From assembly GCA_937874345.1 (NCBI GenBank), contig CALNBT010000053.1:1-54809 (forward strand): 54,809 nt of DNA, read 5' to 3'. Each line of letters starts with the position of its first letter. Positions within the stretch are counted from its first letter, which is position 1. The notes under the pieces were generated by a model. It had not been told where the DNA came from, ran no database searches, and saw nothing but the letters and a program-made list of their open reading frames with translations. Made by a program: the position numbers and the translations under genes. Shown here piece by piece: positions 2,349-27,561 of the stretch. This stretch comes from an uncultured Prevotella sp. GTDB taxonomy: Bacteria > Bacteroidota > Bacteroidia > Bacteroidales > Bacteroidaceae.

Positions 2349-4289
2349 TTAGTCGTGTAAGATCAATGCCGATTGCGGATCTACAATCACCTTACCACCG
2401 GCCATTTCGCCCAGTCCATTTTCATTGATGACACCATCACAGCATACAACCGTGTATCGACCATCTGGGATATTGACTTCCTTTGCCACTTTGTTGGCAT
2501 TGAGCAATACGATAATGGTGTTCCAAGCGTCTTTTCCCGCAAGATTATTCAGTGTAAAACCAACCATGCATGGCTGAGTTGGAAGAAATGACAGATGGGT
2601 TCTGACATCCTCTGCTGATCCCAGACGAAATGCAGGATGGTTTTTTCTTAACCGAATCAGGTTCTTGTAATACTGATATACTTCTGGATAACGATTAAGG
2701 TTATCCCAATCCAGACGATTTATTTCGATTGGTGATTCAAAACTGTTGTGTACGCCTTGTTTTGATCTCAACATCTCTTCTCCGCTCAACATGAACGGAA
2801 CGCCTTGGGAGGTAAAGACTGCAGTCTGAGCCAACTCATCCAAACGAATCAGTTCATTATTCGTTATATCCGGCACAGAAGCCTTTAATCTGTCCACCAG
2901 ACACAAATCGTCGTGACAACTGACATAACTAATCATCTGTATAGGTTCATGAGCCCAGGGCTTTTTCGTGTAGTTTACTTTGCTATCATCTACTTGAGGA
3001 TGATCAATAGCTCCGACAACACCAAACTTGATGCTCTCTTCTTCTCCAGGAATACCCGCCAGAAAAGCGCCTTTCTTATCATCATTGAATGGTCCACGCA
3101 GTCCGTCTCTTATCTCATCGCTGAAAGCAGCAATACGAGGAAGCTGCTGTATATTGGCCTTCATGGCCAGTTTCTCTATTGGATAAGCACAGGTTCCACC
3201 ACTCCAACCTTCACCATACATATTAATGGATGGATCTATTTTATCCAATTCGGCACGGATTGCATTCATGGTTTCAATGTCGTGGACACCCATCAAGTCG
3301 AATCGGAAACCATCAAGATGATATTCGTTGACCCAATATTTCACCGATTCAATCATGAATTCGCGCATTAAAGGACGCTCACTGGCCGTTTCATTTTTGC
3401 AACCCGAACCATTTGAATATTCTCCATCAGCCGTCTTACGGTAATACATATCCGGATAAGTGCGCTGGAAATTACTGCCCTCGATATCAGAGGTATGGTT
3501 ATAGACAACATCCAGAATGACCCTGATTCCAGCTTTGTGCAGGGCTTGAACCATCAGTTTGAACTCCTTGATGCGCGCCATTGGATTCTTGGCATCCGTA
3601 GAATAAGTTCCTTCAGGTACATTATAGTTCTTGGGGTCGTATCCCCAATTGTATTTTGGATTTTCTGTAACCCGTTCGTCTATAGAGGCAAAGTCGAAAG
3701 AAGGCAGCAGATGTACTGCATTGATACCAAGATCTTGCAGATGTTGAACAGCTTTTGGCTCTGCAATACCCAAGAACTTGCCACGATGGATGATTCCTGA
3801 AGAAGGAGAATCGGTATAATCGCGTACATGCATCTCATAAAGCACTAGGTCGACCTGTGATTTTAAAGCAGGTCTTTGATCTGCATCCCATCCCTGTGGA
3901 TTGGTTTCTTTCAGGTCAATAATAGCCGCACGGTTACCATTCACACCGACAGCGGTTGCAAAAACACCGGGTGTCTCACCACCGTTGTGTCCGGGAAAGC
4001 CTAAAACTTCAAAAGTATAGAACATTCCTTTCAAATTACCTTTCACCTCTTTCTGCCATACATCTTTCCCTGCCTTCTTCATGCTGTAAGTTTGGATGGC
4101 ACTGCCTCCTTCTCCTTCACGATAAAGCCTCAGCACAACACGCTTGGCTTTCGTCGGAGCATTGACTTTAAAGACAGTTCTCAGAGGTGAATACATCATT
4201 TCGTTAAACTCTGCAGCCGATAGCTCTGGGGTAAAAAACAAACATACCACGGCCAAAATCGGAAAAAGATACCACTTCTGTTTTTTCAT
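2349..4289 (-). CDS. pulA: Type I pullulanase (GH13), secreted
   Basis: YNWGYDP type I pullulanase signature plus DVVYNH, DGFRFDLM, YGEGW and YVSCHD. Start moved to the ATG at 4289 (MKKQKWYLFPILAVVCLFF signal peptide), which removes the overlap with susB. Confidence 0.9.
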   Translation of the reverse strand: MKKQKWYLFPILAVVCLFFTPELSAAEFNEMMYSPLRTVFKVNAPTKAKRVVLRLYREGEGGSAIQTYSMKKAGKDVWQKEVKGNLKGMFYTFEVLGFPGHNGGETPGVFATAVGVNGNRAAIIDLKETNPQGWDADQRPALKSQVDLVLYEMHVRDYTDSPSSGIIHRGKFLGIAEPKAVQHLQDLGINAVHLLPSFDFASIDERVTENPKYNWGYDPKNYNVPEGTYSTDAKNPMARIKEFKLMVQALHKAGIRVILDVVYNHTSDIEGSNFQRTYPDMYYRKTADGEYSNGSGCKNETASERPLMREFMIESVKYWVNEYHLDGFRFDLMGVHDIETMNAIRAELDKIDPSINMYGEGWSGGTCAYPIEKLAMKANIQQLPRIAAFSDEIRDGLRGPFNDDKKGAFLAGIPGEEESIKFGVVGAIDHPQVDDSKVNYTKKPWAHEPIQMISYVSCHDDLCLVDRLKASVPDITNNELIRLDELAQTAVFTSQGVPFMLSGEEMLRSKQGVHNSFESPIEINRLDWDNLNRYPEVYQYYKNLIRLRKNHPAFRLGSAEDVRTHLSFLPTQPCMVGFTLNNLAGKDAWNTIIVLLNANKVAKEVNIPDGRYTVVCCDGVINENGLGEMAGGKVIVDPQSALILHD

Positions 4290-4305
4290 ATTTGGTTCAC
4301 AATTT

Positions 4306-6447
<2,142 letters not shown>

Positions 6448-6498: not shown

Positions 6499-9201
6499 CT
6501 AAATTTTACGTCCCGACTGTGAGATCAGTTCAGCAATATTTGCTTTCAGGTTTTCATTATCGATCATATCCTCAATATTCAGATGCATGCGGTAACGCCA
6601 ATAGTGTTTCGGATTGGCTGGAATATTGACGCGTTCAGCATCGGCATTGGCCAACCGCAAATTCTCATCGATGGCAAACCAGTCTTGGATAGACAAGATA
6701 CAGAGGATGGATGGCGACATCAAATGGCGAGAAACGATATCTCTTGCCAGCCATCCTGGTAATGGATGTGGGGCCGCTCCATCACGATACAACATCGTAT
6801 TGTAATAATTCTGCGTACGTTCGTAGTTCTCATCCCACCACTGACGTAACGTTGGCATATCGTGAGAAGAGATGGTGTCGACACTGAGATAAGGATTCCG
6901 AGAGAGATGGCCGAACCGAACCTTGGGGTCTTTTGGCATAGACTGCACCTCGAGACTTAAGATACGTAGCTGGTTCATTACCCAGTTTACGCTTTCAGGC
7001 ACCATGCCCAAGTCTTCAGCACACACCAACATTCGAGTAGCCTCAACCATTTTAGGCAATTTCTTCATCGCTTCCTGATACCAAAATTGGTTGTTGCGAT
7101 GATAATAATATTCATTATACAGCTTGTTGAATGCTGTTTTGTCGACACTCCAAAGACTTTCGTAAATGAAATTGAACTGTGCCGTGATACGTGGATGGAA
7201 CAATTCCGGATTCTTATTGTCGCGGACAAACAGTATATCGTCGACCATGGCATACAAACCATCGCGAATCCAGACATCCACATCGGTTTCCTTTCCTTCG
7301 AAAGCAGCCTCAATTTTGCGTTGGGTATCATATTCTGGTTTCAGTTCGTATACATCATCATGGATATGATTGAGATAGGTCGACTTTACTTCCTGGACAT
7401 GCTCTTTGAAAACTCTGTCCAAAACCCAATCACGGATAAAAGGTTTGGTAAACAAGTCTTCCTGGAAATTCAATCCATAAGAAGCTATTTCTTCACGAGA
7501 CATCGCCAGCGCAGGAGAGAATTGCCCCAACAATCCATGAACAGAACTAATTGGAATTTCCCATATTCTGAAGAAACCCAGTACGTGGTCAATGCGATAT
7601 GCATCAAAGAACATAGCCATATTGCGGAACCGACGCACCCACCAAGCACATCCGTCTTTCAACATCTCTTCCCAGTTATAGGTTGGGAAGCCCCAATTCT
7701 GTCCATTGATCGAGAATTCATCGGGTGGTGCACCGGCTTGTCCATTCATATTAAAGTATTTCGGTTCCATCCATACATCACATCCATATCGATTCACCCC
7801 GATTGGAACATCGCCTTTGAGGATGACACGTTTGCTGCAGGCATAATCATGTGCGGATGTCATTTGCGCATAAAGGATAAACTGAACAAAATAATAAAAT
7901 GCCACGTCACCATATGCTTCGTTGCGAACAGAAGTGAGTTGTTTACGGTCTTGTTCATCCCATTGACGATGATCGGGCCACTGACTAAAGTCAGCTGTAC
8001 CATAAGTATCTCGAAGATAACAGAATTGTGAATAGGGAACAAGCCAATCTTCGGTATGCTTAAAAAACCGCTTAAAGGCGTCTGTTGCCATCATCTGTTT
8101 GCCTTCTTGTGCGAACAACAGCTGCAAATATTCTATTTTGCTATTGTTGACACGTTCATAATCAATAGCCGGCAATGCATTTAGTTCAACCTGCAATTCT
8201 TTAAAGCGTTTATTCTCCTGCGAATCCTTTAATTCGGGCAGTTGCCTGAGATCACAATATTGCGGATGCAACGCAAAGATGCTGATGCAACTGTACGGAT
8301 ACGAGTCGGTCCAAGTATGAGATGTGGTGGTATCGTTGATCGGAAGCAACTGCAAAACGCGCTGGTTGGTTACGCTAGCGAAATCAACCATTGTCTTTAA
8401 ATCGCCGAAATCGCCTACACCAAAGCTGCCTTTACTTCGTAACGAGAACAATGGAACCAAGGTTCCTGCCATTCGCGCATATCGATCAGCGAAGTACACC
8501 TGCTCCAACTGATAAACAACCACGTCACCCGCATTCATCAATGGCAAACTAATCGTACGATTCTGTTCATCTTCCCACAATGGGGTAACATCATTCTTTT
8601 CGTCGAGTGCTGCAAACTTGAATTCTATCTGCATCTCTTTAAAAATCTTCGCATCCAAATCAATGATCCATTCATGATGTTGATGTTGAACCATCTCTAC
8701 TGCCTGCAGGGCGTTCCATTGTCCCAAGGCCTTTGCATTACCAAGAATGGCAAGACGTTCACCCATTTTCAACTGTGGCGCCCTGACAACAAAACGAACC
8801 GTTTGCTCAAAGGTTGACGGTTTAGGATGACCAAGTTTTAGGTGATTGAGGCAGTCGGTAAAGGCAGAAGTGTAAAGATGAGTATCTTGCGGGATGTCCA
8901 ACCAGATATCATACAAACGATACTGTGAGGCTTTTGATGCTGTCAAATCCAGCATGTGGGCAACAGTAGTCCATTCCTGTCGTTTGATTTGACCATCGGT
9001 TTCCACTGAATAAAAATAATTCAGAGCAAAAGAACCGTTCAATAGCTGAAGTGTCATATTGTAATACCAATGCAATCCGTCAAAGGTAGACATACGATAG
9101 GGTGTAATACTCTTGTCACCTGAAGGCAACAGCTCTACGAGGTTCAAGATCAAGTCTTCACCGAAACTTGTCTTATATTCAATATTAAATTGTATATTCA
9201 T
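6499..9201 (-). CDS. malQ: 4-alpha-glucanotransferase (GH77), DPE2-like with N-terminal CBM20 domains, cytoplasmic
   Basis: 900 aa with no signal peptide; CBM20-like N-terminus (LGNAKALGQW, WEDEQNR); GH77 motifs YRIDHVLGFFRIW, CAEDLG and SSHD. Confidence 0.9.
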   Translation of the reverse strand: MNIQFNIEYKTSFGEDLILNLVELLPSGDKSITPYRMSTFDGLHWYYNMTLQLLNGSFALNYFYSVETDGQIKRQEWTTVAHMLDLTASKASQYRLYDIWLDIPQDTHLYTSAFTDCLNHLKLGHPKPSTFEQTVRFVVRAPQLKMGERLAILGNAKALGQWNALQAVEMVQHQHHEWIIDLDAKIFKEMQIEFKFAALDEKNDVTPLWEDEQNRTISLPLMNAGDVVVYQLEQVYFADRYARMAGTLVPLFSLRSKGSFGVGDFGDLKTMVDFASVTNQRVLQLLPINDTTTSHTWTDSYPYSCISIFALHPQYCDLRQLPELKDSQENKRFKELQVELNALPAIDYERVNNSKIEYLQLLFAQEGKQMMATDAFKRFFKHTEDWLVPYSQFCYLRDTYGTADFSQWPDHRQWDEQDRKQLTSVRNEAYGDVAFYYFVQFILYAQMTSAHDYACSKRVILKGDVPIGVNRYGCDVWMEPKYFNMNGQAGAPPDEFSINGQNWGFPTYNWEEMLKDGCAWWVRRFRNMAMFFDAYRIDHVLGFFRIWEIPISSVHGLLGQFSPALAMSREEIASYGLNFQEDLFTKPFIRDWVLDRVFKEHVQEVKSTYLNHIHDDVYELKPEYDTQRKIEAAFEGKETDVDVWIRDGLYAMVDDILFVRDNKNPELFHPRITAQFNFIYESLWSVDKTAFNKLYNEYYYHRNNQFWYQEAMKKLPKMVEATRMLVCAEDLGMVPESVNWVMNQLRILSLEVQSMPKDPKVRFGHLSRNPYLSVDTISSHDMPTLRQWWDENYERTQNYYNTMLYRDGAAPHPLPGWLARDIVSRHLMSPSILCILSIQDWFAIDENLRLANADAERVNIPANPKHYWRYRMHLNIEDMIDNENLKANIAELISQSGRKI

Positions 9202-9449
9202 AATTTTATGTTGATAGATGAGGAAAGAGAATATTTTCTGAGTTATTCAAAAAAAATGGTTAATGACCTCGTTTCGAACTGGTAGAAGAAGTGCCTTTCC
9301 ATAAACGCTTGCAATCAATTGTATAACTCTGTATTTTCCTCATTCACTTATAGTTACAATAGCATTAAGATTGGCAATCAATAGGATGCAGATTGCACAT
9401 CAAACGCATGCAAATTGGGAACCAAAATCATTGGGTTTGTCATTCAATA

Positions 9450-10775
9450 TCAAACTGTTTTCAATTTAGAATGTTCTTTGATGATATATACGAATGCTGA
9501 CCCCAGGATAAGACTGATACCTGCAACATACATCATATGGGCCTGAACACCACCGACAAGCGTTAGGACCAGACCACCTGTTAGTCCTGCTACAATCTGA
9601 GGAATGGTGATAGAAGCATTGAAGAGGCCAAGATAAGTACCCATGTGTGATTTGCCTTCCAGTGCATTGGTTACAATGGTGAATGGCATGGCGAGCATGG
9701 CTGCCCAAGCACATCCGATAAATGCGAATGGTAAGAAGAGCATCCACTGGTCGTGAATGAAAGGTACAAGACAGAAACCCACTCCACCGATAATAAGGCT
9801 AAGGGCATACGCAAATTTCAATCCAAATTTATTTTCGATAGCAGGTAATGCTGCCGCCCAAAGTACACTGGCCACAGCTTCCATTGCAAAGACAATACCG
9901 ACCCAGTCACCTGCTTCCTGATAAGCCTTAGAGGCAGTGTTGGTGCTGTTCCATACGGTATCTGAGATCGTTCCGGTAGTATAGGTCCACATCAACAGGA
10001 AGGACGCCCAACTGAAGAATTGGACCAATGAAACGCGCCAGAAGTTAGTGGGGGCCTTACGAAGTAGTTCTACCACGCCGGCCTTGTTACCCTTGCTCTC
10101 GTTCACTGGCTCTTGATATTGAGCGAACTCGTCTGGTGGCAACTCTTTTACCTTGGAAATAGTATAGAACACACAAGCGATGAGAATCAACGCTCCTATA
10201 AAGAATGCCCATTTGACAGACTGTGGAACGCCATGCTCTGCACTATTACTCAACCCGATGTAAGTCAGAATAAAAGGAAGAGCAAAGCCAACAACCTGGC
10301 CTAGATTGACCAGAAAGCTCTGGATGGCATAGCCCAAACCTTTTTGCTTTTCATTAACCATATCACCGACCATCATCTTGAACGGCTGCATAGCCATATT
10401 GAGACTGGTGTCTAGAAACATCAGAATGACGGCACCGATAACCATCGCTATACTCGTTGTATTGCTAAAGCTTCCGGTATTGGGCAGCAACACCATCATG
10501 ATAACAGCAATGAGGGCTCCAAATATTAAATAAGGTATACGGCGTCCAAAGCGTGTCCAGGTACGATCGCTCGCAATACCAACCAGCGGTTGAACAATAA
10601 GGCCCATCAACGGAGGCAAGATCCAAAAATAGCTAAGGCTATGTGGATCAGCACCGATGGTTGCGAAAATGCGGGAGTTGTTACCACTTTGAAGCGCGTA
10701 AGCAATCTGCACTCCGAAGAAACCAAAGCTCAAATTAAAGAGTTGGGTTCGCGATAAATCAGGTTTTTGTTTCAT
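9450..10775 (-). CDS. MFS sugar (maltose/maltodextrin) transporter, MalT/SLC45-like
   Basis: About 12 TM helices; motifs LSFGFFGVQIAYALQ, SDRTWTRFGRRIPY and MGTYLGLFN..ITIPQI; located in the starch locus. Confidence 0.85.
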   Translation of the reverse strand: MKQKPDLSRTQLFNLSFGFFGVQIAYALQSGNNSRIFATIGADPHSLSYFWILPPLMGLIVQPLVGIASDRTWTRFGRRIPYLIFGALIAVIMMVLLPNTGSFSNTTSIAMVIGAVILMFLDTSLNMAMQPFKMMVGDMVNEKQKGLGYAIQSFLVNLGQVVGFALPFILTYIGLSNSAEHGVPQSVKWAFFIGALILIACVFYTISKVKELPPDEFAQYQEPVNESKGNKAGVVELLRKAPTNFWRVSLVQFFSWASFLLMWTYTTGTISDTVWNSTNTASKAYQEAGDWVGIVFAMEAVASVLWAAALPAIENKFGLKFAYALSLIIGGVGFCLVPFIHDQWMLFLPFAFIGCAWAAMLAMPFTIVTNALEGKSHMGTYLGLFNASITIPQIVAGLTGGLVLTLVGGVQAHMMYVAGISLILGSAFVYIIKEHSKLKTV

Positions 10776-10940: not shown

Positions 10941-11966
10941 CTACCTTGTGGTTCCTCTAATAACAAGTCTGGTACGGACGATTCTCTTCTCTACTAAGTC
11001 ATGAGGTAGATTACCTTCTACCTGACTGATAAGGATGTCGGCAGCCTCTTCGCCTACCCGAAATCCGCGTTGTTCAACAGTGGTCAACATCGGATCGCAG
11101 GCAATGGCACGTTCGCCATTGGTAAATCCGCAAATAGAGATATCATTCGGCACACGAAATCCCATTCTTTTGGCCGCATAAAGAATACCGATAGCAGTGT
11201 CATCGTTTACAGCAAAGAATGCATCAGGACCCTCTTCAATCTCCAATATTTCTGGGGATATCCGTTCTGCCTCTGCCCTATTATCGCAGATTCTGAAAAA
11301 GCGCTGATCTTCCTTGAGTCCATTTTTGATGAGCGCATCACGATATCCATTATATCTATTCTTCGATATTTCCATGTTCATGGATGATCCATAATATGCA
11401 ATCCGCCTGCAACCTGTTGCAATCAGATGAGACACGGCATTAAAAGCGCCCAGATAATCGTCTACTACAACCCTGCTGCAATTAACTCCTGTGCAAATAC
11501 GATCGTAAAACACCAAGGGCATACCATACTCGATGAGCTTTTTAAAATGGTCGTACTGCTGGGTGTCTTTTGCCTGAGAAACGATAATGCCACAAACCTT
11601 GTTCTCAAAGAAATCCTCGCAGATGCGCACTTCCCGCTGATATTTCTCATTGCTTTGCGCCACCATGACTCGATAGCCGCGTTCGTTCGCCTCTTCCTCA
11701 ATCCCCGATAAGATGGTCGAGAAATAGAAATGAGCAATCTGAGGTACGATAACACCGATAACTTTTACAGGTTTCACCTTACTATATCGCAAAGACTCTG
11801 CTATCATATTAGGTATATAATGATGTTCGTGCGCATAAGTCTGAATACGATTGCGCTGTTCTTTACTGATCTGCGAGCTATCTTTCAATGCACGCGAAAC
11901 AGTTGCCACAGAAACACCCAGTTCCCGTGCGATATCTTTCATTGTGATAGACGACAAAAAACTCAT
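10941..11966 (-). CDS. LacI/GalR-family transcriptional regulator (MalR-like)
   Basis: HTH ITMKDIARELGVSVATVSRAL, hinge YIPNMIAESL and a periplasmic-binding-protein-like sugar domain (LTTVEQ). Divergent from susC. Confidence 0.92.
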   Translation of the reverse strand: MSFLSSITMKDIARELGVSVATVSRALKDSSQISKEQRNRIQTYAHEHHYIPNMIAESLRYSKVKPVKVIGVIVPQIAHFYFSTILSGIEEEANERGYRVMVAQSNEKYQREVRICEDFFENKVCGIIVSQAKDTQQYDHFKKLIEYGMPLVFYDRICTGVNCSRVVVDDYLGAFNAVSHLIATGCRRIAYYGSSMNMEISKNRYNGYRDALIKNGLKEDQRFFRICDNRAEAERISPEILEIEEGPDAFFAVNDDTAIGILYAAKRMGFRVPNDISICGFTNGERAIACDPMLTTVEQRGFRVGEEAADILISQVEGNLPHDLVEKRIVRTRLVIRGTTR

Positions 11967-11986: not shown

Positions 11987-12015
11987 CAAATATATGCAAA
12001 AACGTGGAACGCAAA
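11987..12015 (-). promoter_or_regulatory. Bacteroidota sigma-A promoter for the lacI-MFS arm
   Basis: Minus-strand -7 box TATATTTG (11994-11987) and TTTG at 12015-12012, 17-nt spacer. Confidence 0.6.
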
Positions 12016-12046
12016 AACATAAACCTTTGATTAATATATATTTCTG

Positions 12047-12064
12047 AATGCAATCGTTTGCATT
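12047..12064. promoter_or_regulatory. LacI-family operator palindrome
   Basis: AATGCAATCGTTTGCATT has the CG-centred A..CG..T dyad typical of LacI sites. A near-identical copy lies at 21390-21405. Confidence 0.75.
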
Positions 12065-12116
12065 GAATTAATAACGGATTTGTATTGAAAAAAGTACATT
12101 ATATTTGAAAGAAAAC

Positions 12117-12124
12117 TATCTTTG
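12117..12124 (+). promoter_or_regulatory. -7 promoter element for susCDEF
   Basis: TATCTTTG matches TAnnTTTG. An alternative TATATTTG lies at 12100-12107 with TTTG at 12079-12082. Confidence 0.6.
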
Positions 12125-12301
12125 CCATACGAAGAATGTAAGCAGAGGCTGAGATTCATGTCGAAGAAACCTAAGCATTTATCCGTTTCCCGCATAAGGG
12201 AACTCAAAAACCTAACGGATGATCATGGCCGACGCAAGCAGAGAAACCCTAAACTATAAAATAGATTAACTATATTAATATTAACTTAAAACAAAAGAAT
12301 A

Positions 12302-15300
12302 ATGAAGCATGTAAAATTTACGTTGCCTCTAAGAATGTTCACACTCCTGTGTGTGTTGATTCTTTCAGCTAGTGCCATCGCGCAAGAAATTGCAGTGAAG
12401 GGGCATGTGAAGGATGAAGCCGGCGAGCCCATCATTGGCGCCACCGTCAGAATTGGAGCTCAAGATGGCGGAACTGTAACGGATATAGATGGTAACTTCT
12501 CCATCAATGCCAATGCTGGTGCGATTGTCTCAGTAAGTTATATCGGATATCTGACAGCAAAAATGCCCGCCACTTCCGAAATGACCGTTACATTGAAAGT
12601 TGACAATGGCCAATCACTGAACGAAGTGGTGGTTATCGGATACGGTACAGTAAAGAAAAGCGACCTTACCGGTTCTGTAATGGCATTGAAACCAGATGCA
12701 AAGAACAAGGGTTTGATCGTCAATCCTCAAGATTTGATTTCAGGTAAGGTTGCCGGTGTAAGTGTTACGAGTGGTGGTGGTACCCCTGGTGGCGGATCAA
12801 CGATCCGTATTCGTGGTGGATCGTCATTGAATGCCAGCAACGACCCATTGATCGTCATCGACGGTATCCCAATGGATAATAGTGGTGTAAAAGGTCTTGC
12901 CAACCCACTTTCTATTGTCAATCCTCAGGATATCGAATCATTCAACGTTTTGAAAGATGCTTCTGCAACAGCTATTTATGGTTCTCGAGGATCTAATGGT
13001 GTTATCATTATTACCACAAAGAAAGGCCGTGCCAATCAACCATTGCAAATCTCCTATGCTGGAAGTGTTACTGCCAGCATGAAGAGAAAGACGGTAGATG
13101 TGATGAATGCCGGCCAATACCGCGACTTTATTAAGTCTATTTGGGGCGAAGGCAGTGATGCATATAAAGCTCTTGGAACAGCCAACACCAATTGGCAGGA
13201 TGAAATTCTACGAACAGCTATAGGACAAGATCATAACTTGACATTCTCTGGTGCATTCGGTAAAGGACAAAATGCGCTTCCTTTTCGTGCTTCTGTTGGT
13301 TATACCAATAATAATGGTATCGTAAAAACCTCAAACTTCGAAAGATATACAGCTGCTCTGGCACTGAATCCAACTTTACTTGACAACCACCTGAACATCA
13401 ATTTGAACGTGAAAGGCATGTATGCGAAGAACCGTTATGCTGACGGTGGAGCGATTGGTGCTGCTGTTGCATACGACCCTACACAAAGTGTATACGACAG
13501 AACTTCTGTTGATGCTGCTAACTATGGTTACTATCATGCATGGAGAGGCGCAGGGCTTGATCCAACTGAAGATCCTTCCTGGCCATCAACACTGAACACC
13601 TTAGCCACAAGAAACCCTGTTGCCATCTTAAACCTGAAAGATGATCGCGCCAAGAGTCAAGATTTGATCAGCAGTGCAGACATTGACTATAAGGTTCAAG
13701 GATTCGAAGATTTGCGTTTACATGTTACTGCCGGCGCTGATATCGCTCAGGGCAAGCAAGATACCCACATCGACCCAACATCCCCTTTGTCTTCTTATTA
13801 TGGATCTGATGGATGGAGCAAAATTAAAAAACGCAATTTGACGTTGAGTAGCTATGCACAATACTATCATGACTTCAACGACCAAGCCAAGAACCACTTT
13901 GATATCATGGGTGGTTATGAATGGCAACATTTCTGGAGACAGGAAACAAGTCGTACATTGCAATACTATCCAAGCACCAATCTCAAACATGGCGGACAGC
14001 TGTACAAAGATAGTGGCAAGGATTATAATGGTGATGGAACATTAGAAGACTACCTTTTTAAAACCGAAAACTATTTGGTTTCATTCTTTGGCCGTGCCAA
14101 CTGGAGTTTGATGGACCGTTACTATGTTACAGCAACGGTACGTGATGATGGATCATCACGTTTCCAGCAAAACTGGGCTACATTCCCTTCTTTTGCATTC
14201 GCATGGAAAATGAAGGATGAAAACAAATTTAGAGAAATCAATTGGTTGTCAGACCTGAAGCTTCGTCTTGGTTGGGGTATGACTGGTCAGCAGGAAGGTA
14301 TTGGAGACTACAATTACTTTGATATCTATCAGATTGGTACAGGTACCAATAACTTCTATCCTATCACTGGTGATGGCACTGTTGCACGTCCTCAGGCCGT
14401 TAACAAGAAACTGAAATGGGAGACAACAACAACTTATAATATTGGTCTTGACTGGGGTATTCTGAATCAAAGACTTTCAGGTAGCGTAGACTGGTACTAT
14501 CGTAAAACGAGTGACTTGTTGAACCAAGTATATGTTTCTGCAGGTTCAAACTTCCGAAACCAGGTTACATCAAACATCGGTTCATTGAGAAATACGGGTG
14601 TTGAAGCTTCTATCAGTTGGAAAGCAATTCAGACAAAGGACTGGTTCTGGACTTTAGATTATAACTTAACTTGCAACTCAAACAAGATTACTGACTTGAC
14701 AGGTGGAAGTGGTAGTAACTACTTCATTCCAACAGGTGGTATCTCAGCAGGTACAGGTAGCAATGCTCAAGCTCATGCTGTTGGCCATCCAGCTTCTACA
14801 TTCTATGTTTATCAGCAGATTTATGACCAAGCAGGAAAACCAATAGAGAATGCAGTTGTAGACCGCAATGCTGATGGACAGATTACAGAAGCAGACAAGT
14901 ACTTCTATAAGAGTCCTAATGCTCCTGTAACAATGGGTATGGCTTCACGTCTCGAGTATAAGAATTTTGACTTTGGCTTCGCTTTGAGAGCAAGCATTGG
15001 CAATTATGTATTTAATGATAGAATGTCTTCTAGCTCAAATGTATCTCCAGCTGCCGTATGGGCATCTTCAAACTTCTTATCAAATCGTCCTGTAGCTTCT
15101 GTAGCTGACAACTGGCAGACACAGAATACTACTTCGATTCTTTCAGATCGTTGGGTGCAGAACGCATCTTTCTTGAAGTGTGACAATATCACTTTGGGGT
15201 ACAGTTTCCAAAATTGGTTCAAGGGAGCTAACGCAAAAGGCTTGAATGGTCGTTTGTATGCAACATGTTCAAACGTGTTCACTGTGACAAAATATAAAGG

Positions 15301-15388
15301 AATTGACCCTGAAGTATTCGGTGGTATTGACAACAACCTTTACCCACGTCCTATCTCATTTATATTCGGTTTGAATTTAAACTTCTAA
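12302..15388 (+). CDS. susC: SusC/RagA TonB-dependent outer-membrane transporter
   Basis: 1028 aa; signal peptide; plug signature LKDASATAIYGSRGSNGVIIITTKKG; LKWETT motif; C-terminal F. Confidence 0.96.
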   Translation: MKHVKFTLPLRMFTLLCVLILSASAIAQEIAVKGHVKDEAGEPIIGATVRIGAQDGGTVTDIDGNFSINANAGAIVSVSYIGYLTAKMPATSEMTVTLKVDNGQSLNEVVVIGYGTVKKSDLTGSVMALKPDAKNKGLIVNPQDLISGKVAGVSVTSGGGTPGGGSTIRIRGGSSLNASNDPLIVIDGIPMDNSGVKGLANPLSIVNPQDIESFNVLKDASATAIYGSRGSNGVIIITTKKGRANQPLQISYAGSVTASMKRKTVDVMNAGQYRDFIKSIWGEGSDAYKALGTANTNWQDEILRTAIGQDHNLTFSGAFGKGQNALPFRASVGYTNNNGIVKTSNFERYTAALALNPTLLDNHLNINLNVKGMYAKNRYADGGAIGAAVAYDPTQSVYDRTSVDAANYGYYHAWRGAGLDPTEDPSWPSTLNTLATRNPVAILNLKDDRAKSQDLISSADIDYKVQGFEDLRLHVTAGADIAQGKQDTHIDPTSPLSSYYGSDGWSKIKKRNLTLSSYAQYYHDFNDQAKNHFDIMGGYEWQHFWRQETSRTLQYYPSTNLKHGGQLYKDSGKDYNGDGTLEDYLFKTENYLVSFFGRANWSLMDRYYVTATVRDDGSSRFQQNWATFPSFAFAWKMKDENKFREINWLSDLKLRLGWGMTGQQEGIGDYNYFDIYQIGTGTNNFYPITGDGTVARPQAVNKKLKWETTTTYNIGLDWGILNQRLSGSVDWYYRKTSDLLNQVYVSAGSNFRNQVTSNIGSLRNTGVEASISWKAIQTKDWFWTLDYNLTCNSNKITDLTGGSGSNYFIPTGGISAGTGSNAQAHAVGHPASTFYVYQQIYDQAGKPIENAVVDRNADGQITEADKYFYKSPNAPVTMGMASRLEYKNFDFGFALRASIGNYVFNDRMSSSSNVSPAAVWASSNFLSNRPVASVADNWQTQNTTSILSDRWVQNASFLKCDNITLGYSFQNWFKGANAKGLNGRLYATCSNVFTVTKYKGIDPEVFGGIDNNLYPRPISFIFGLNLNF

Positions 15389-15406: not shown

Positions 15407-17041
15407 ATGAAAATCTATATAAAAACTTTAGTTCTTTCAGCAGCGATTATATGTACTGTAGGATTAAGCTCTTGTGTCAATGATTTGGATGTCACACCAA
15501 TTGACCCAAACCTACAGACCACAATTAATCCTGATCAACTGCTGAACAAATGTTACGCTAACTTTGCTATGGCTGGAAACAGTGGTCCGGACGGCGATTG
15601 TGACATCGATGGTTTGGATGGTGGTACAACAGGTTTTATCCGTCAGTTGTTCAATTCTAATGAGTTGACAACAGATGAAGCAATATGTAACTGGGGAGAT
15701 AATGAAGGTATTCCTGAGTTCAACTTCAATAACTATGGTGCTTCTCACCCAATGTTGAAGGGATTCTACTATCGTTTGTATTTTGGTGTTACTGTTTGCA
15801 ATCAATACATTTCACAGTTTGGTAGTGTAGACAAACAGAAGACAGCAGAAGTTCGTTTCCTCCGTGCTCTTCAGTATTACTTGTTGATGGATGCATACGG
15901 AAATGTTCCTTTCACAGAAACAGTGTCTGACCAACTTGCTCCTCAATATTCTCGTAAGCAGATATTCGATTACATCGAAAAGGAATTAACAGAAATCGAG
16001 CAAGATTTGGCAGCACCAAAGGCAAAGACTTCATCTGATCCTAATTATGGCCGTGTAGACCAGGTTGCAGACTGGATGCTAAAGATGCGTTTATATCTAA
16101 ATGCCGAAATTTATACAGGTACAGCACAGTGGACAAAGGCAGCAGAATATGCTAAGAAGGTTATCGATTCTCCTTATAAGCTTTACACTGGTGCTAAAGT
16201 GAACGGTTGGAGCGCTTATCAACAGCTATTCATGGGTAACAATGGTGAGAACGGGTCTTCTGTAGAAGCAATTTTCCCAATCCTACAGGATGGTAAAAAA
16301 ACTGCTGCTTATGGTTGTACAGTATTCTTGATAAATGCTTGTTCTGATGCTGATGACGTTATTAATCCTAACGGAAATCCTGGTCTTGGTCTTTTTGACA
16401 ATGCAAACTGGGCAGGTGTTCGTGCTCGCAAGAGTCTCATTGATAAGTTCTTCCCAACAAATAATGCACAGAATGTAACTGGTGCAGAAATGCCTGCACT
16501 TGCAAATGATGACCGTGCACTCTTCGACGGTGCTGGCAGAAAGATTACTCAGGAAACTGGTACAGAAATTACACAGTTCAAGAAAGGTTTCTCTGTATTG
16601 AAGTTCAACAACTTCTATTCAGATAATGGTTCTGCTAAGGATTTGGGATATGCTGATACCGACTTTTTCTTCTTCCGCGTTGCTGAGGCTTACCTCGCAT
16701 ATGCTGAGGCTACTGCTCGTGCAAATGGTGGTACAACAACAACTGAAGGAACAGGTTATATTAATGCGCTTCGACAACGTGCTCATGCACAAGTTAGAAC
16801 CACTGGTGGATATTCACTCAATGATATCCTCGATGAATGGAGCCGCGAGTTCTATTTTGAAGGACGTCGTCGCGTAGATCTAGTTCGTTTCGGTAAGTTT
16901 GGTGGTAACAACAACTATAACTGGCCTTGGAAAGGTGGCGTATTGAACGGCACGAACTTCTCTGAGAACCGTAACATCTTTGCTATCCCGACAACCGACT
17001 TGACTGTCAATACAAACTTGAAGCAGAATCCAGGTTATTAA
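15407..17041 (+). CDS. susD: SusD/RagB glycan-binding lipoprotein
   Basis: Lipobox GLSSC; motifs AEVRFLRALQY, FRVAEAYLAYAEA and ILDEWSREFYFEGRRRVDLVRF; terminal QNPGY. Confidence 0.95.
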   Translation: MKIYIKTLVLSAAIICTVGLSSCVNDLDVTPIDPNLQTTINPDQLLNKCYANFAMAGNSGPDGDCDIDGLDGGTTGFIRQLFNSNELTTDEAICNWGDNEGIPEFNFNNYGASHPMLKGFYYRLYFGVTVCNQYISQFGSVDKQKTAEVRFLRALQYYLLMDAYGNVPFTETVSDQLAPQYSRKQIFDYIEKELTEIEQDLAAPKAKTSSDPNYGRVDQVADWMLKMRLYLNAEIYTGTAQWTKAAEYAKKVIDSPYKLYTGAKVNGWSAYQQLFMGNNGENGSSVEAIFPILQDGKKTAAYGCTVFLINACSDADDVINPNGNPGLGLFDNANWAGVRARKSLIDKFFPTNNAQNVTGAEMPALANDDRALFDGAGRKITQETGTEITQFKKGFSVLKFNNFYSDNGSAKDLGYADTDFFFFRVAEAYLAYAEATARANGGTTTTEGTGYINALRQRAHAQVRTTGGYSLNDILDEWSREFYFEGRRRVDLVRFGKFGGNNNYNWPWKGGVLNGTNFSENRNIFAIPTTDLTVNTNLKQNPGY

Positions 17042-17111: not shown

Positions 17112-18275
17112 ATGACAAATATATTAAAGTCGACGCTATTACTGCTTTTCACTGTAGTTTTTTTTGCCTCCTGCAGTGACGATAACGGCTCTAATCCGAT
17201 ATTAAAGTCACCGACAACATTCCACCTCAATACACCTGCTTTAGCAACAAACGGTGTATACGACTTGGCTAATTCGAATGTTGTTGAACTGACATGTACA
17301 CAGCCGGACTATGGATTTCCAGCCGTAACAAAGTACACCGTACAGGTAGCAACCAAACCGGATATGTCTGATTCAATCAATCTGCCGACTACCTATACCA
17401 CAGCCAAGATACAAATAAACGCTCTCGACCTTGCCAGCACCTTGACAACAATGAAGCTGACACAAGGTTTGACAGAGAAAGACTTTCCTGTTGACATGCC
17501 TGTTTATTTCCGCCTGAAAGCCAATCAACTGACAGCAGATGGTACAACTATCCCCGGCATGGAGATTCTTTCAAACGTTGTGACCTTAAAAGATGTGCAC
17601 TTGCTCTTCTCATTGCCGCCAGTTAAACTACCAACGCACATCTATGTTACGGGTAGCTTCAACGGATGGTCTTGGGATACTGCTCTCGACATGGTTCCGG
17701 TCTATGGCACTGATGGCATATTCTGGCACCTTGTTTATATCGACAACAGTGGTATTAAGTTCAATACTGCAACTGCTTGGGATGGTGGTGAAGTAGGTTT
17801 CGCGAAGATCACAGTCGATGACGCCAGCGAATTAAAGAGTCAAATCGTTGATGGAGGCGGGAATATTGCATCCAACACACCAGGTTGGTACCTGATGGTC
17901 GTTCAATGTACACTTGATGGACGTAATATTCGTTATAAGGTTACCTTCAACAAGCCTAACGTTTATATCATGGGTCCTGTAACTGTGAAGGGAGACTGGT
18001 CTGAACTGGAAGATGCAGCGCTGATGACAGTTCCAACAGATGCCAACGGACAATTTGTTTCTCCTGCATTCAGTAAATCCGTACCTGGTGGTACTGGTGA
18101 CGGTGTTCGTGCATACGTTAAGGTTCCCGGATTTGACTGGTGGAAAGCTGAGTTCATGATATTCAGTGGCAAGATTGTTTATCGTGGCAAAGGCGTAGAT
18201 CAAGATCACGTTGCAGGTACTGCCGGTCAGAGTCTCTACTTGAACTTCACGAACGAAACGGGTGAGATTAAATAA
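17112..18275 (+). CDS. susE: SusE-like starch-binding outer-membrane lipoprotein
   Basis: Lipobox FASC; SusE N-domain (LTCTQPDYG..YTVQV); Trp-rich CBM modules (GSFNGWSW, GFDWWKAEF); follows susD. Confidence 0.85.
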   Translation: MTNILKSTLLLLFTVVFFASCSDDNGSNPILKSPTTFHLNTPALATNGVYDLANSNVVELTCTQPDYGFPAVTKYTVQVATKPDMSDSINLPTTYTTAKIQINALDLASTLTTMKLTQGLTEKDFPVDMPVYFRLKANQLTADGTTIPGMEILSNVVTLKDVHLLFSLPPVKLPTHIYVTGSFNGWSWDTALDMVPVYGTDGIFWHLVYIDNSGIKFNTATAWDGGEVGFAKITVDDASELKSQIVDGGGNIASNTPGWYLMVVQCTLDGRNIRYKVTFNKPNVYIMGPVTVKGDWSELEDAALMTVPTDANGQFVSPAFSKSVPGGTGDGVRAYVKVPGFDWWKAEFMIFSGKIVYRGKGVDQDHVAGTAGQSLYLNFTNETGEIK

Positions 18276-18300
18276 TAACAACGATTTCAGACACAACGAC

Positions 18301-19677
18301 ATGAAAAAAATATCATTATATGTAACACTCGCACTGACAGCCTTCTTAATGGGGGCCTGCAGTGGCGATTATACCAATTGGGCTGATCCTCAGGCTTACA
18401 GTCAGGAAAACGCAGTAACTATTCCCGGATTCAAAGCTACTGCCGTTGCTAGTCAAGACTTAGCAACAACAGGTGACAGCGTACAGACATTCACGCTTAG
18501 TTCAGCAAAACTCCCCGATGGCTATGCTCTTCAGAACGCACGAATCCTTCTGACTCCCGTTGGCATTGACAATGCTCAGACAACAACCGTCAATACAACC
18601 CTTAACGGTAAAGTACTGACATCAGATATTCAAAGCCTGATTGAAAGCATTTATGGTAAACGTCCTACTAACCGTACATTTGATGCTCACGTATATGTAA
18701 GCGCGATCAGAAATGGACAGGCTGCTTTCATCGATGCAGGTAAGATTCAGTTTGTAGCAGCTCCCAAAGCTCCTTTCATCGACGCCGGATATTATTTGGC
18801 TGGTGACATCACGGGATGGGATGCAAGTGGCGCTGTTGCTTTCAAGCATAGCAGCCAGGATGTATACACTGATCCAGTATTCACAATCTTCTTTACAACA
18901 AATGCTGCAAACAAGTACTGGAAGATTATCCCGAAGAACAACTATGATGGAGACTTCTGGAAAAATGGAATCAATGGCGTTTTAGGAACAACTGTTGATG
19001 GCGACACCAGCATGGAGGGTAAATTGACTACAGACAACCCACAGGCAGGTAAAATAGTTGAAGCAGGCATATACCGTATGACCATCAATATGATGGATTA
19101 TACTTACAAAATTGAAAAACTCAACTTCCAAGAGTTTATGTACATGGCTGGTGATGCCAACGGTTGGTCACAGATTGACATCCTTCAAAGTCCGGCATTT
19201 GATGGTATATATACTGGCTATATGTACATGAACCAGAATGGATTCAAATTCTGTACACAACCGAACTGGAACGGTCCAAACTATGGAGCAGGATTTAGCA
19301 CTGCTGGAGATGCTCCAAACATCACATTGACCGAACCTGAAGGTTTCTATAAGGTGACTCTCGATATGGGTGCTTTATCATACTCTTTGACCCCAATTAC
19401 AACCATCGGAGTGATTGGAGATGCAACTGCAGACGGTTGGAACAGCGACCAGAGCATGACCTACGATAAGGCAAACCGCTGCTGGGTTATTCAAAACATC
19501 GTATTGAAAGACGGTGCCATCAAATTCCGCGCAAACGATGCTTGGGATATCAGTTGGGGTGGAACACTCAACTCTCTGACGACACAGAATGGATCGAACA
19601 TCTATGTTGCAGCAGGAACTTACACCATCAAGTTATACTTGTCATATGATGGCAATTCACACGTAACGATTCAATAG
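18301..19677 (+). CDS. susF: SusF-like starch-binding outer-membrane lipoprotein
   Basis: Start reassigned to the ATG at 18301 (MKKISLY...LMGAC lipobox). Three CBM-like repeats: YYLAGDITGW, YMAGDANGW and GVIGDATADGW..IKFRANDAWDISWG. Confidence 0.82.
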   Translation: MKKISLYVTLALTAFLMGACSGDYTNWADPQAYSQENAVTIPGFKATAVASQDLATTGDSVQTFTLSSAKLPDGYALQNARILLTPVGIDNAQTTTVNTTLNGKVLTSDIQSLIESIYGKRPTNRTFDAHVYVSAIRNGQAAFIDAGKIQFVAAPKAPFIDAGYYLAGDITGWDASGAVAFKHSSQDVYTDPVFTIFFTTNAANKYWKIIPKNNYDGDFWKNGINGVLGTTVDGDTSMEGKLTTDNPQAGKIVEAGIYRMTINMMDYTYKIEKLNFQEFMYMAGDANGWSQIDILQSPAFDGIYTGYMYMNQNGFKFCTQPNWNGPNYGAGFSTAGDAPNITLTEPEGFYKVTLDMGALSYSLTPITTIGVIGDATADGWNSDQSMTYDKANRCWVIQNIVLKDGAIKFRANDAWDISWGGTLNSLTTQNGSNIYVAAGTYTIKLYLSYDGNSHVTIQ

Positions 19678-20006: not shown

Positions 20007-21269
20007 ATGAAACCTTTCAGAGTGGTCTTGATCGTACTAATATGCCTAGTAGCATCAACAGTCACAGCTCAAAAATATATCGGAGGTGACATCTCTTTGT
20101 TACCCAGATACGAAGAAAGTGGCGCTACCTACTTCGACATCAAAGGTTCATCCATTTCAGCACCCTTGACTTTTTTCAAACAACAAGGTATGAATGGTAT
20201 GCGGCTGAGATTATTTGTCGATCCCAGCAAAGCCTCAACAGTAGACAAGGGCCAAGGAGTTTGTCAAGATTTAGCTTATGTTATTGCGTTGGGAAAACGT
20301 ATTAAAGCTGCAGGGATGTCATTGGTACTTGATTTTCATTATTCAGACTCATGGGCAGATCCTTCGAAACAATGGATCCCTGATGATTGGACAACTTTGA
20401 GTGACAATGATCTTTACACAAAGATATACACCTATACCAAGGACGTTTTAATGCAAATGACAGCAGAAGACGCAACCCCAGACTTCATCCAAATAGGGAA
20501 TGAAATCAGTAATGGAATATTGTGGGGAAAGGAAGGAATTACTAGTCAAAAAAAATGCGACACGAACAGCACGAATAATTGGAGCTATTTCACAACACTG
20601 TTAAAAATGGCAGGCAAAGCATGCCGTGAAGTTTGTCCTCAAGCCAAAATCATTATCCACACAGAAAGGGTTGCACAAGCCGATATTTTGAAAGGCTTTT
20701 ACGACAACATGAAAACTTACAGTGTTGACTACGATATCATAGGATTGAGCTATTATCCAATTTATCATGGATCAATGAGTAACCTTAACGCTGCGCTCAC
20801 AATGCTTGAGAACAACTATCCCGACAAAAATATCATGATTGTTGAGACAGGTTATTATCACGATTGGCAGCCTTCAAACCCTACTTACGACTTGTCGGAC
20901 ACGTACCCAATTACACCAGAAGGCCAGCAGGCATTCACTGAAGCACTCATTCAAACGTTGAACAACCATCCAAAGGTCAATGGGCTGTTTTGGTGGTGGA
21001 TGGAAGCAAACGAAAAAGGACTTGACTGGAACACCAAACGAGTGACCGACAACTGGTATAATGCAGGTCTCTTTGACAACCAAACAGGCAAGGCCGAACC
21101 TGCGCTTTATTGTATGAAACAGTTTTTAGTGAACATTGACGGTATAGCACAAACGAAAATAACATATTCAGAACCTAAAGAATGGTATACATTATCTGGT
21201 TCTATAGTTACCCATCCTAAACAGAAAGGCATTTATGTCACAAAAGGAAAGAAACTTGCCATTAAATAA
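20007..21269 (+). CDS. GH53 endo-beta-1,4-galactanase with a short T9SS-type C-terminal tail
   Basis: Motifs GGDIS, RLRLFVDP, DFHYSDSWADPSKQ, QIGNE (acid/base) and IVETG (nucleophile); signal peptide; tail WYTLSG...KGIYVTKGKKLAIK. Confidence 0.9.
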   Translation: MKPFRVVLIVLICLVASTVTAQKYIGGDISLLPRYEESGATYFDIKGSSISAPLTFFKQQGMNGMRLRLFVDPSKASTVDKGQGVCQDLAYVIALGKRIKAAGMSLVLDFHYSDSWADPSKQWIPDDWTTLSDNDLYTKIYTYTKDVLMQMTAEDATPDFIQIGNEISNGILWGKEGITSQKKCDTNSTNNWSYFTTLLKMAGKACREVCPQAKIIIHTERVAQADILKGFYDNMKTYSVDYDIIGLSYYPIYHGSMSNLNAALTMLENNYPDKNIMIVETGYYHDWQPSNPTYDLSDTYPITPEGQQAFTEALIQTLNNHPKVNGLFWWWMEANEKGLDWNTKRVTDNWYNAGLFDNQTGKAEPALYCMKQFLVNIDGIAQTKITYSEPKEWYTLSGSIVTHPKQKGIYVTKGKKLAIK

Positions 21270-21389: not shown

Positions 21390-21405
21390 ATGCAAACGTT
21401 TGCAT
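21390..21405. promoter_or_regulatory. LacI-family operator palindrome upstream of the amylase gene
   Basis: Perfect 16-bp palindrome ATGCAAACGTTTGCAT; -7 box TACATTTG at 21459-21466. Confidence 0.78.
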
Positions 21406-21498
21406 TCAGTCTTTATCTAATTTAATCAGATAAATATGGATATTTAAGACTGAAATACTACATTTGAAAGTAATTTACCTAATTAAGCAACTAATTAT

Positions 21499-23682: not shown

Positions 23683-24795
23683 TTACTTGTCAGCCTTATC
23701 TTTAACAATTTTAGGTCCGCGAACCTTGTCTTTTGCACTCACTCCCTGCTTGATTTGAATGTTCAAGCCATCACTTAAGCCTGTAACGACCTTCTTACGC
23801 GTATAGGTCTTATTTTTATCCTTGCCATTTACTACATAGACATAGGTATTGTTACCACTAAACTCAATAGCACTTTCAGGAACAGTCAGCACATGAGAGG
23901 CACTAGCCAGTACTATTTCAGCATTGGCACTATAGCCGCTACGTATCTGATGGTTGTTCACCCCACGGACAGCCGCTTTGATTTCAAATTGGTTCGCACC
24001 ATTGTTCTCAACAGCTTTGGGTGAAACATACTCCAAAGAAGCTTGCAAATGAGTGTCCTGTAAGGCTCCGATTGTAATCTTCATCGGCATACCCACCACA
24101 AGTTGGCCCACTTCTGTTTCATCAATATTCCCTCTGAAAATCAAGTCATTCATGTTGGCAACCGATGCAATGGTTGTTCCGTCATTGAAGGTGTTACTTA
24201 AAATAACCGTATTTCCAACCTTGACAGGCACGTTCAGAACCAATCCGCTGATGGTAGACCGAATCAAGGTACTGCTGGTATTGGCATTGTTTTTCGAAAC
24301 ACCGTCGCGCACAACTTCCAAATTGTCTTGCGCAGCCATCACTTCTTCATTAGCTTGGTTGTACGACTGACGAATCTTGTCGTATTCATCACCAGAGACC
24401 AGTCCTTTGTCGTACAACGCTTTCTGACGGTCAAAGTTGACCTTTGCCTGCTTGACATTGATTGATGCCAAACGAACTCGAGCCTGCGCATTTGCCAACT
24501 GATTCATATCAGGCACCACCTTGACTTTGGCAATGATCTCACCAGCCTGCACCATGTCGCCCGCTTCTTTCATGATCTCAGTAATAATACCCGAAATCTG
24601 TGGCTTGACATTTACTTCGTTACGTGGCTCAATCTTACCCGTAACCACTGTCACCTTACGCAAATCGGTCATTTGAGGCGTAAATTCTTCATACAAAACG
24701 GGTTGCGGTTGTGACTTTTGCCATAAAAACACAAACGTACCGATGAACACAAACAGAATAAGTGCTGCAACGATTAACTTGAAATTCTTTTTCAT
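23683..24795 (-). CDS. Efflux periplasmic adaptor (MacA/HlyD-type membrane fusion protein)
   Basis: N-terminal TM anchor from the ATG at 24795 (MKKNFKLIVAALILFVFIG); TGKIEP..VNVKPQISG lipoyl half; coiled coil; VLTVPESAI. Confidence 0.88.
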   Translation of the reverse strand: MKKNFKLIVAALILFVFIGTFVFLWQKSQPQPVLYEEFTPQMTDLRKVTVVTGKIEPRNEVNVKPQISGIITEIMKEAGDMVQAGEIIAKVKVVPDMNQLANAQARVRLASINVKQAKVNFDRQKALYDKGLVSGDEYDKIRQSYNQANEEVMAAQDNLEVVRDGVSKNNANTSSTLIRSTISGLVLNVPVKVGNTVILSNTFNDGTTIASVANMNDLIFRGNIDETEVGQLVVGMPMKITIGALQDTHLQASLEYVSPKAVENNGANQFEIKAAVRGVNNHQIRSGYSANAEIVLASASHVLTVPESAIEFSGNNTYVYVVNGKDKNKTYTRKKVVTGLSDGLNIQIKQGVSAKDKVRGPKIVKDKADK

Positions 24796-25039
24796 TTTAA
24801 ATTTCTCCCAACCTCTTTCTATGGAGAGGAGTGCCACGGGGAAAACGCTTTTTGGCACGTTTGAGATATTTTTCCAGTTGTCATGCTTTGAAAATCGATT
24901 TGATCATCATTTCATCTGCAAACCAATCTAAAAGATATCCCCTATTTTATGTCATTTAATAATCTCCAATGATCTATATCCATGCTTTCAACGCCCTACT
25001 TCTTACAACGTCCCCACATGAAAGTTGCCTGAAAATAGA

Positions 25040-26284: not shown

Positions 26285-26285
26285 A

Positions 26286-27545: not shown

Positions 27546-27561
27546 GAGCGTGCTGTTTCAG

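Follow-up and report, generated by a model that had tools for sequence, protein, structure and literature searches.

The window, by which we mean the whole stretch of 54,809 nucleotides from an uncultured Prevotella sp., carries a starch locus with two divergent arms. On the minus strand, a gene for a LacI/GalR-family regulator of 341 amino acids (10941-11966) is directly followed downstream by a gene for an MFS sugar transporter (9450-10775), and further genes on this strand encode a GH77 4-alpha-glucanotransferase (6499-9201), a GH97 protein (4306-6447), a pullulanase (2349-4316) and a neopullulanase-type GH13 protein (408-2264), all assigned by Pfam. On the plus strand, susC (12302-15388), susD (15407-17041), a susE-like gene (17112-18275) and a susF-like gene (18262-19677), recognized with Pfam and NCBIfam, are followed by a GH53 gene (endo-galactanase family; 20007-21269) and a GH13 alpha-amylase gene (21499-23538; Pfam), which is a predicted target of the regulator because the amylase genes of relatives show the same site geometry. 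There is no -7 box between lacI and the MFS gene, so the two are likely co-transcribed and autoactivation would raise both the regulator and the importer. The GH53 gene of the window has neither an operator nor a -7 box ahead of it; GH53 genes adjoin the regulator in many Bacteroides loci. After the starch locus, the minus strand encodes an HlyD-type membrane-fusion protein, two MacB/FtsX permeases and an ABC ATPase (23683-28281). A preliminary description of this DNA proposed that the LacI protein replaces SusR. No SusR-type gene is found in the locus, but the genome has three DUF6377 genes elsewhere (contigs C29, C84 and C220); none lies in the window, and no gene of the window is SusR-like by this mark.

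Between lacI and susC lies a shared operator-like palindrome, AATGCAATCGTTTGCATT (12047-12064, core 12049-12062, no strand assigned), which was read from the sequence and is a perfect match in the genome scan. It is palindromic in 8 of 9 pairs and is centred at 12055/12056. On the susC arm, a -7 box, TATCTTTG, is predicted at 12117-12124 on the plus strand, 62 bp from the central C of the operator, and relatives have it at 62-63 bp. On the lacI-MFS arm, sequence and relatives point to a predicted -7 box, TATATTTG, at 11987-11994 on the minus strand, which starts at 11994, 62 bp from the central G. Re-reading of the sequence showed that the preliminary description had placed the palindrome, its centre, both boxes and the two 62-bp arms correctly. 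Absent from that description is a second perfect palindrome upstream of the amylase gene (21390-21405, core 21391-21404, no strand assigned), found by the genome motif scan. It adds a third arm of 62 bp, measured from its central C to a predicted amylase -7 box read from the sequence, TACATTTG (21459-21466, plus strand). All recognizable predicted promoter boxes of the starch locus, three of three, therefore lie 62 bp from a palindrome. The exact 14-bp core has two matches in the 2.58-Mb genome, both within the starch locus, and none of the eight one-mismatch sites elsewhere in the genome has a -7 box at 60-65 bp. Beyond 12047-12064, the divergent lacI/susC region contains no operator-like site with fewer than 4 mismatches. 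Upstream of the GH77 gene there is a possible decayed operator with 3 mismatches (9300-9313, minus strand), at a place where relatives carry intact sites; by eye it pairs weakly, at 62 bp, with a 2-mismatch -7-like box starting at 9245 (9238-9313 together, minus strand).

The genome has 637 -7 boxes in intergenic DNA ahead of ORFs that are 150 codons or longer. Sites with at most 2 mismatches lie 58-67 bp upstream of three of these 637 boxes, all three at 62 bp and all in the starch locus. Both flanks of the operator were then permuted by single bases in 200,000 shuffles with the operator held fixed. Boxes at equal distances on both arms arose in 3 of the 200,000 shuffles (3 of the 634 shuffles with boxes on both arms), and a third arm matching the same distance arose in none. 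A sigma-70 scan, which uses the E. coli consensus, is uninformative for this host. RNA contigs from 4 of 24 runs gave patchy cover: none lay over 12037-12226, and one reached 12036 across the lacI box.

The TTG of the -33 element peaks in this genome at spacers of 19 and 20 (62 and 98 of the 637 boxes, respectively), and 194 boxes (30.5%) have TTG at a spacer of 17-21. None of the three 62-bp promoters has TTG at spacer 19-20. The susC box at 12117 had been described as lacking a normally spaced -33 element, and indeed no TTG occurs 17-21 bp before it; the amylase box is also without a -33 TTG. TTTG precedes both the lacI box and an alternative -7-like box on the susC side (12100-12107, plus strand, 45 bp from the operator), in each case at spacer 17, where the genome shows no excess. 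This alternative box was considered as the susC promoter and rejected, because it is unconserved (present in 1 of 64 divergons, that of the window) and off the -33 spacing peak; it is probably incidental. According to the available text of a study of S. copri, 15% of primary start sites have the -33 motif (bioRxiv 2024.04.05.588293), so its absence from a single promoter says little. The preliminary description had used the missing element as evidence, which carries little weight for one promoter, given that only 30% of the genome boxes have TTG, but does hold as a depletion across the regulon. In relatives, TTG at spacer 17-21 was found in 4 of 61 susC arms, 7 of 83 lacI arms and 3 of 29 secondary arms, that is, in 14 of 173 arms as opposed to 194 of 637 genome boxes, which is a sequence proxy for a weak core promoter. 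By this proxy, the arms of the regulon have the weak core promoters that belong to a class I architecture.

Conservation of the 62-bp spacing in orthologous loci, which the preliminary description had named as a check, was borne out in a set of 86 loci, composed of 27 at E<=1e-112 (the window included) and 59 further genome matches. A site with at most 2 mismatches is present upstream of lacI in 85 of the 86 loci. The lacI-arm box lies at 61-65 bp in 83 of these 85 (61 bp in 5, 62 in 45, 63 in 24 and 64 in 9), the susC-arm box lies at 62 or 63 bp in 61 of the 64 loci in which susC is directly divergent, and both arms fit the spacing in 59 of these 64 direct divergons; the genomes are related rather than independent, and the counts include kin. 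Three loci from other families, left out of the 86, fit poorly: L028 has no site, and L029 and L030 have boxes at 52/102 and 61/28, respectively. In one locus (L076, G340:C38) the lacI and susC matches are 52 bp apart and no operator lies between them, possibly through a deletion or an assembly fault. We also compared named loci (L090-L169), which overlap the 86-locus set, so that the counts are not additive. Among L090-L143, the site is present in 48 of the 52 loci with enough flank, and the spacing fits on the lacI side in 47 of 48 and on the susC side in 16 of 17. Among L144-L169, which are mostly from Paludibacter, the susC side is at 62-63 bp in 20 of 20 loci, and the lacI side is at 60 bp in 16 of 23, at 59 in one and at 61-63 in six. 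A rule of one single number is contradicted by these 60-bp lacI arms and by the 64-bp lacI arms in 9 of the 85 others.

The palindrome had been described as sitting exactly midway between the two boxes, which is true of the window but is not an invariant. Arms are equal in 19 of the 57 single-operator divergons with both arms in range (62/62 in 14 and 63/63 in 5), and in several loci (L034, L042, L091-L094 and L115) the operator is split in two, each copy lying 62-63 bp from its own promoter. As judged from these loci, the distance to each promoter, and not the midpoint, is the conserved quantity, and the midpoint position would result from both promoters sharing one site. Between loci, the 52-bp stretch that precedes the lacI-side box shows 32% identity versus 29% when shuffled, the spacers at secondary sites are 33% identical versus 29-30%, and the susC-side spacer is 40% identical versus 32%. 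Distances from box to gene vary over 24-215 bp and 57-249 bp on the two arms. With a spacer sequence that is near random and a box-to-gene distance that is variable, it is length and not sequence that has been kept. The 86 loci also hold 37 secondary sites, ahead of displaced susC, amylase, GH77 and GH97 genes, with operators at 62-63 bp before GH77 and GH97 in relatives. A strict box stands at 62-63 bp from 28 of them, and for 7 of the other 9 a one-mismatch box stands at that distance. By its sequence record, the palindrome at 12047-12064 is a real and functionally constrained feature.

In the susC-side spacer, positions 12088-12097 (plus strand) hold an A-tract and then GTA, the latter where the -33 element of susC would be. 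This element is partly conserved: among the 34 susC arms spaced at 62 bp, A occurs in 88-91% at four positions and G in 79%, and the pattern is weaker over all 61 arms. The longer stretch 12070-12097, with TAACG near +17 to +21 from the operator centre, the A-tract and GTA, is also partly conserved and is absent on the lacI side. It seems possible that the A-tract at 12088-12097 is DNA contacted by the alpha-CTD of RNA polymerase. A Cur/CRP-like site in the same spacer was sought by eye and rejected, with 7 of 14 positions agreeing with the consensus.

The regulator belongs to the LacI/GalR family by its PF00356 score of 57.6 bits (cut-off 27) and its PF13377 score of 106 bits, the Pfam LacI and Peripla_BP domains, and its PDB matches are CcpA and PurR. 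It falls below every NCBIfam cut-off, the best model being CytR at 205 of 436 bits, and it has no C-terminal extension beyond the sugar-binding domain. Spence, Wells and Smith (2006, J Bacteriol 188:4663) are said to have described a LacI-type activator of B. fragilis, OsuR, which is needed for maltose induction of osuABCD; an insertion in its gene could be polar on the MFS gene. The 80 named loci kept for comparison do not include B. fragilis OsuR itself. With the LacI protein encoded at the syntenic place in Bacteroides hominis (L090), the regulator of the window shares 53% identity; there, lacI-MFS diverges from a set of four genes (susC, susD, a susF-like gene and one more), and the palindrome stands at 63/63. 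The window has the synteny of the OsuR group, with lacI divergent from starch susC/D and followed by the MFS gene. In a 30-row tree (midpoint root, one long-branch row), the LacI proteins of the window, Bacteroides and Paludibacter are separated from a paralogue clade (100/100) by starred branches. On domains, synteny and tree, the protein is likely an OsuR orthologue.

Additionally, we examined the co-occurrence of regulator and site in the same 300 genomes of the host family, requiring E<=1e-100 for the orthologue and motif plus 61-65 bp spacing for the site. Each was found in 59 genomes: 57 genomes have both, 2 the orthologue only, 2 the motif only and 239 neither. The two orthologue-only genomes carry one-mismatch operator variants at 61/63 (L052, L056), and a backwards control pattern matched in 2 of the 300 genomes. 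Presence and absence split within genera, with 18 of 21 genomes carrying this LacI in each of two large genera (g1 and g27), the same genomes in both searches. A palindrome of the CG-centred form co-occurs, as far as sequence searches tell, with the lacI orthologue, and the neighbouring LacI-family protein likely binds it.

The paralogous clade is about 36% identical and is UxmR-like by eye when compared with the supplement of PMC4052901. In 9 of 12 loci, the paralogue site is 25-26 bp from its own -7 box, with the right arm over the -33 position, and the same sites are 52-53 bp from the divergent box (61 bp in one, L179). An overlap layout therefore exists in these genomes, and the starch regulator does not use it, even at its own gene. 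Facing the paralogous lacI in nine loci (L170-L175, L178, L179 and L181) is divergent non-coding DNA, about 70-100 nt long, in which an AU-rich core is conserved and a hairpin resembles a terminator; we regard it as a candidate LacI-controlled small RNA. Rfam gave no match in 5 paralogue loci, and the AU-rich core was not found in the genome of the window.

We consider it probable that the adjacent LacI protein binds the palindrome 62 bp upstream of each box and acts there as a maltose-responsive activator. An OsuR-type activator with positive autoregulation is the likely identity of this protein and the best reading of the locus. The preliminary description had already suggested one LacI dimer in activator geometry on both arms together with positive autoregulation, and the spacing in orthologues and the near absence of the 45-bp box from them (1 of 64) speak for it. 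The first T of a -7 box lies near -12. A dimer on the palindrome would have its centre near -73/-74, ahead of the DNA covered by polymerase, and the two-fold symmetry of the site would let a single dimer act on both divergent promoters. Contact on one face of the helix, most plausibly with the alpha C-terminal domain (class I type), would let the dimer recruit polymerase to weak promoters that have only a -7 box; the A-tract near -41 to -38 on the susC side, which is partly conserved, would suit this. Relative to the predicted boxes, the whole site lies ahead of the core promoter and its distance is constrained, as in class I activation. However, a distance of about 73 bp is long for such a contact. 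A complex prediction for the regulator dimer (with an alignment led by a Bacteroides orthologue) and the host alpha-CTD scored zero and is counted neither for nor against this contact. The amylase gene would be switched on from its own operator copy, and activation of the regulator and the MFS importer from the same site would create positive feedback. The effector is likely maltose or maltodextrin, judging from the gene content and from the maltose induction reported for OsuR.

Position alone does not fix the sign of regulation. In the available text of PMC4693257, GalR bound at -60.5 (OE) represses gal P1 and activates P2 through contact with the polymerase alpha-CTD, so that one operator serves both effects. 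The LacI protein of the window could accordingly bind its site and repress, or act with opposite signs at different promoters, by trapping polymerase through contact until maltose releases it, an explanation that we regard as unlikely. Most LacI proteins are repressors, and the inhibition of P1 by GalR from an upstream operator depends on the helical face and also predicts a fixed spacing. In classical steric repression the operator lies over the core promoter or start; at the three promoters of the window it lies 62 bp upstream. The -33 element is, however, depleted below the genome baseline, as expected of activator-dependent promoters, all arms lie in one phase, so that one sign is expected, and the paralogue uses the overlap layout where repression is likely. 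The phenotype reported for OsuR also argues for activation. It is improbable in our estimate that the LacI protein positions, recruits or blocks a second factor, such as a Cur/BT4338-type CRP-like or DNA-bending protein, between operator and promoter. The submotifs partly conserved in the susC-side spacer would suit such a factor, as would the best NCBIfam score, which belongs to the anti-activator CytR and is far below cut-off, and an effect of BT4338 on maltose use (PMC5061871, available text). Yet the lacI-side and secondary spacers keep the same distance with no conserved second site, their identities of 32% and 33% standing close to the 29-30% of shuffled sequence.

We find it very improbable that a regulator other than this LacI binds the site. 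Two genomes have the motif with no orthologue at E<=1e-100, but 57 of the 59 motif genomes have an orthologue, 239 of the 241 genomes with no orthologue have no motif either, and the two orthologue-only genomes have their one-mismatch variants at 61/63. The CG-centred 14-bp form also resembles the cre boxes of CcpA, a LacI-family protein, as given in the available text of PMC3463425. As for the equal spacing being coincidence or mere common descent, -7-like boxes are short, the region is AT-rich and kin share history; the shuffles, the same spacing at non-homologous promoters, the near-random spacers of fixed length and the split operators together leave this explanation a negligible chance.

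The activator reading has several partial parallels. The preliminary description had cited MalR of B. thetaiotaomicron as a LacI activator, but MalR is BT4338, a CRP-like protein (PMC5061871, available text). The LacI protein of the window lacks the CRP/Fnr-type domains of MalR/BT4338 (Cur). MalR is therefore no precedent for a LacI activator, and OsuR, as reported, fits better. In the osu locus of B. fragilis, as in the window, a lacI gene is reported to diverge from starch susC and susD genes and to have an MFS gene behind it; unlike that locus, the window adds GH77, GH97, pullulanase and GH53 genes and a separate amylase operator. Both SusR and MalR/BT4338 exert positive control over starch or maltose genes in B. 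thetaiotaomicron, according to the available texts of PMC3878776 and PMC5061871, but the former is a membrane sensor whose sites are direct repeats and the latter is CRP-like, so that neither is a LacI protein. GalR at OE of E. coli gal resembles our proposal in that a LacI-family dimer on an upstream operator makes a helix-face-dependent contact with the alpha-CTD (PMC4693257). GalR is mainly a repressor; it works through a pair of operators and looping, and it affects two tandem promoters in opposite ways. The sites of the window, by contrast, are single and in one phase at all targets, and they lie further upstream by more than 10 bp. For CcpA, binding upstream of -35 generally activates; the upstream lev cre site represses (PMC3463425, available text). 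LacI-family activation from upstream sites is seen for CcpA (ackA, pta and ilvB), Cra/FruR and, as a prediction, PckR (available texts of PMC3463425 and PMC4052901). Unlike CcpA and Cra/FruR, which those texts present as global, dual and mostly repressing, the LacI protein of the window is local, and nearly every examined site is upstream.

Among described loci, PUL3 of Prevotella melaninogenica is similar in having a divergent LacI, MFS, glucanotransferase, pullulanase, susCDEF and amylase genes and no SusR; the main text of the preprint (bioRxiv 2025.07.04.663206) does not use the words 'promoter' or 'repress', gives no operator or sign of regulation and suggests a semi-constitutive LacI. 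The available text of that preprint also places LacI and MFS homologues in the sus cluster of B. fragilis. In S. copri, the HTH regulator and symporter of a predicted starch locus, which may be a different locus, are co-transcribed and were undetected in vitro (bioRxiv 2024.04.05.588293, available text). The consulted part of Ravcheev 2013 has four Bacteroides LacI regulons (KdgR, UxaR, UxmR and UxuR), none for starch (PMC3878776), and that of the Ravcheev 2014 supplement has two LacI factors in B. fragilis, with only KdgR listed as studied (PMC4052901). A full-text literature search for the 12-letter motif with 'Bacteroid' found no publication, and we found no published operator, spacing rule or autoregulation for OsuR, although subscription papers, Spence 2006 and bioRxiv supplements may hold them. 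The positive role of an OsuR-type regulator thus appears to be known; the operator, the spacing rule, the extended regulon and the autoactivation were not found in print. Because LacI-family activation is already known, the surprise is limited.

The usual teaching example of starch control in Bacteroidota is SusR of B. thetaiotaomicron, but 59 of the 300 sampled family genomes carry this LacI instead. The operator together with the 62-63 bp rule allows near error-free calling of the regulon and its promoters from sequence, and with it a small number of spacer mutants could test the mechanism of OsuR-type activation. As an inducible part, a compact cytoplasmic activator that drives two directions from one 14-bp site would be useful in Bacteroides and Prevotella genetics. 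Autoactivation together with the importer, if true, predicts a lag or bistability on starch.

An order-wide search with spacings of 49-77 bp allowed gave 79 matches in 51 of 300 genomes, 46 of them at 61-65 bp versus 13.6 expected, with side peaks at 51-53 and 73-75 bp. The periodicity has p of about 0.001-0.01 for periods of 10.5-12, in a post hoc test on matches that are not tied to the regulator. Outside the order, 6 of 244 genomes matched, at 53, 64, 65, 68, 72 and 75 bp, and this rarity does not support a phylum-wide generality of palindrome and spacing. A broader picture, which we offer tentatively and would rate at somewhat below an even chance, is that a Bacteroidales branch of LacI proteins consists of sugar-dependent activators on a helical ladder of about 52, 62 and 73 bp from the -7 box. 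The starch regulator among them would activate itself, its importer and susC from one site, in a positive-feedback and possibly bistable circuit, and the UxmR-like paralogue would repress itself and activate a small RNA from one turn closer. Of the 12 order-wide matches at 73-75 bp, 6 have, by eye, a second half-site 12 bp nearer. Overlapping second half-sites 12 bp on were seen in several other families (G517:C77, G398:C12, G615:C138, G569:C21, G535:C7, G058:C19, G612 and G402), where they give tandem positions of about 74/62 or 64/52.
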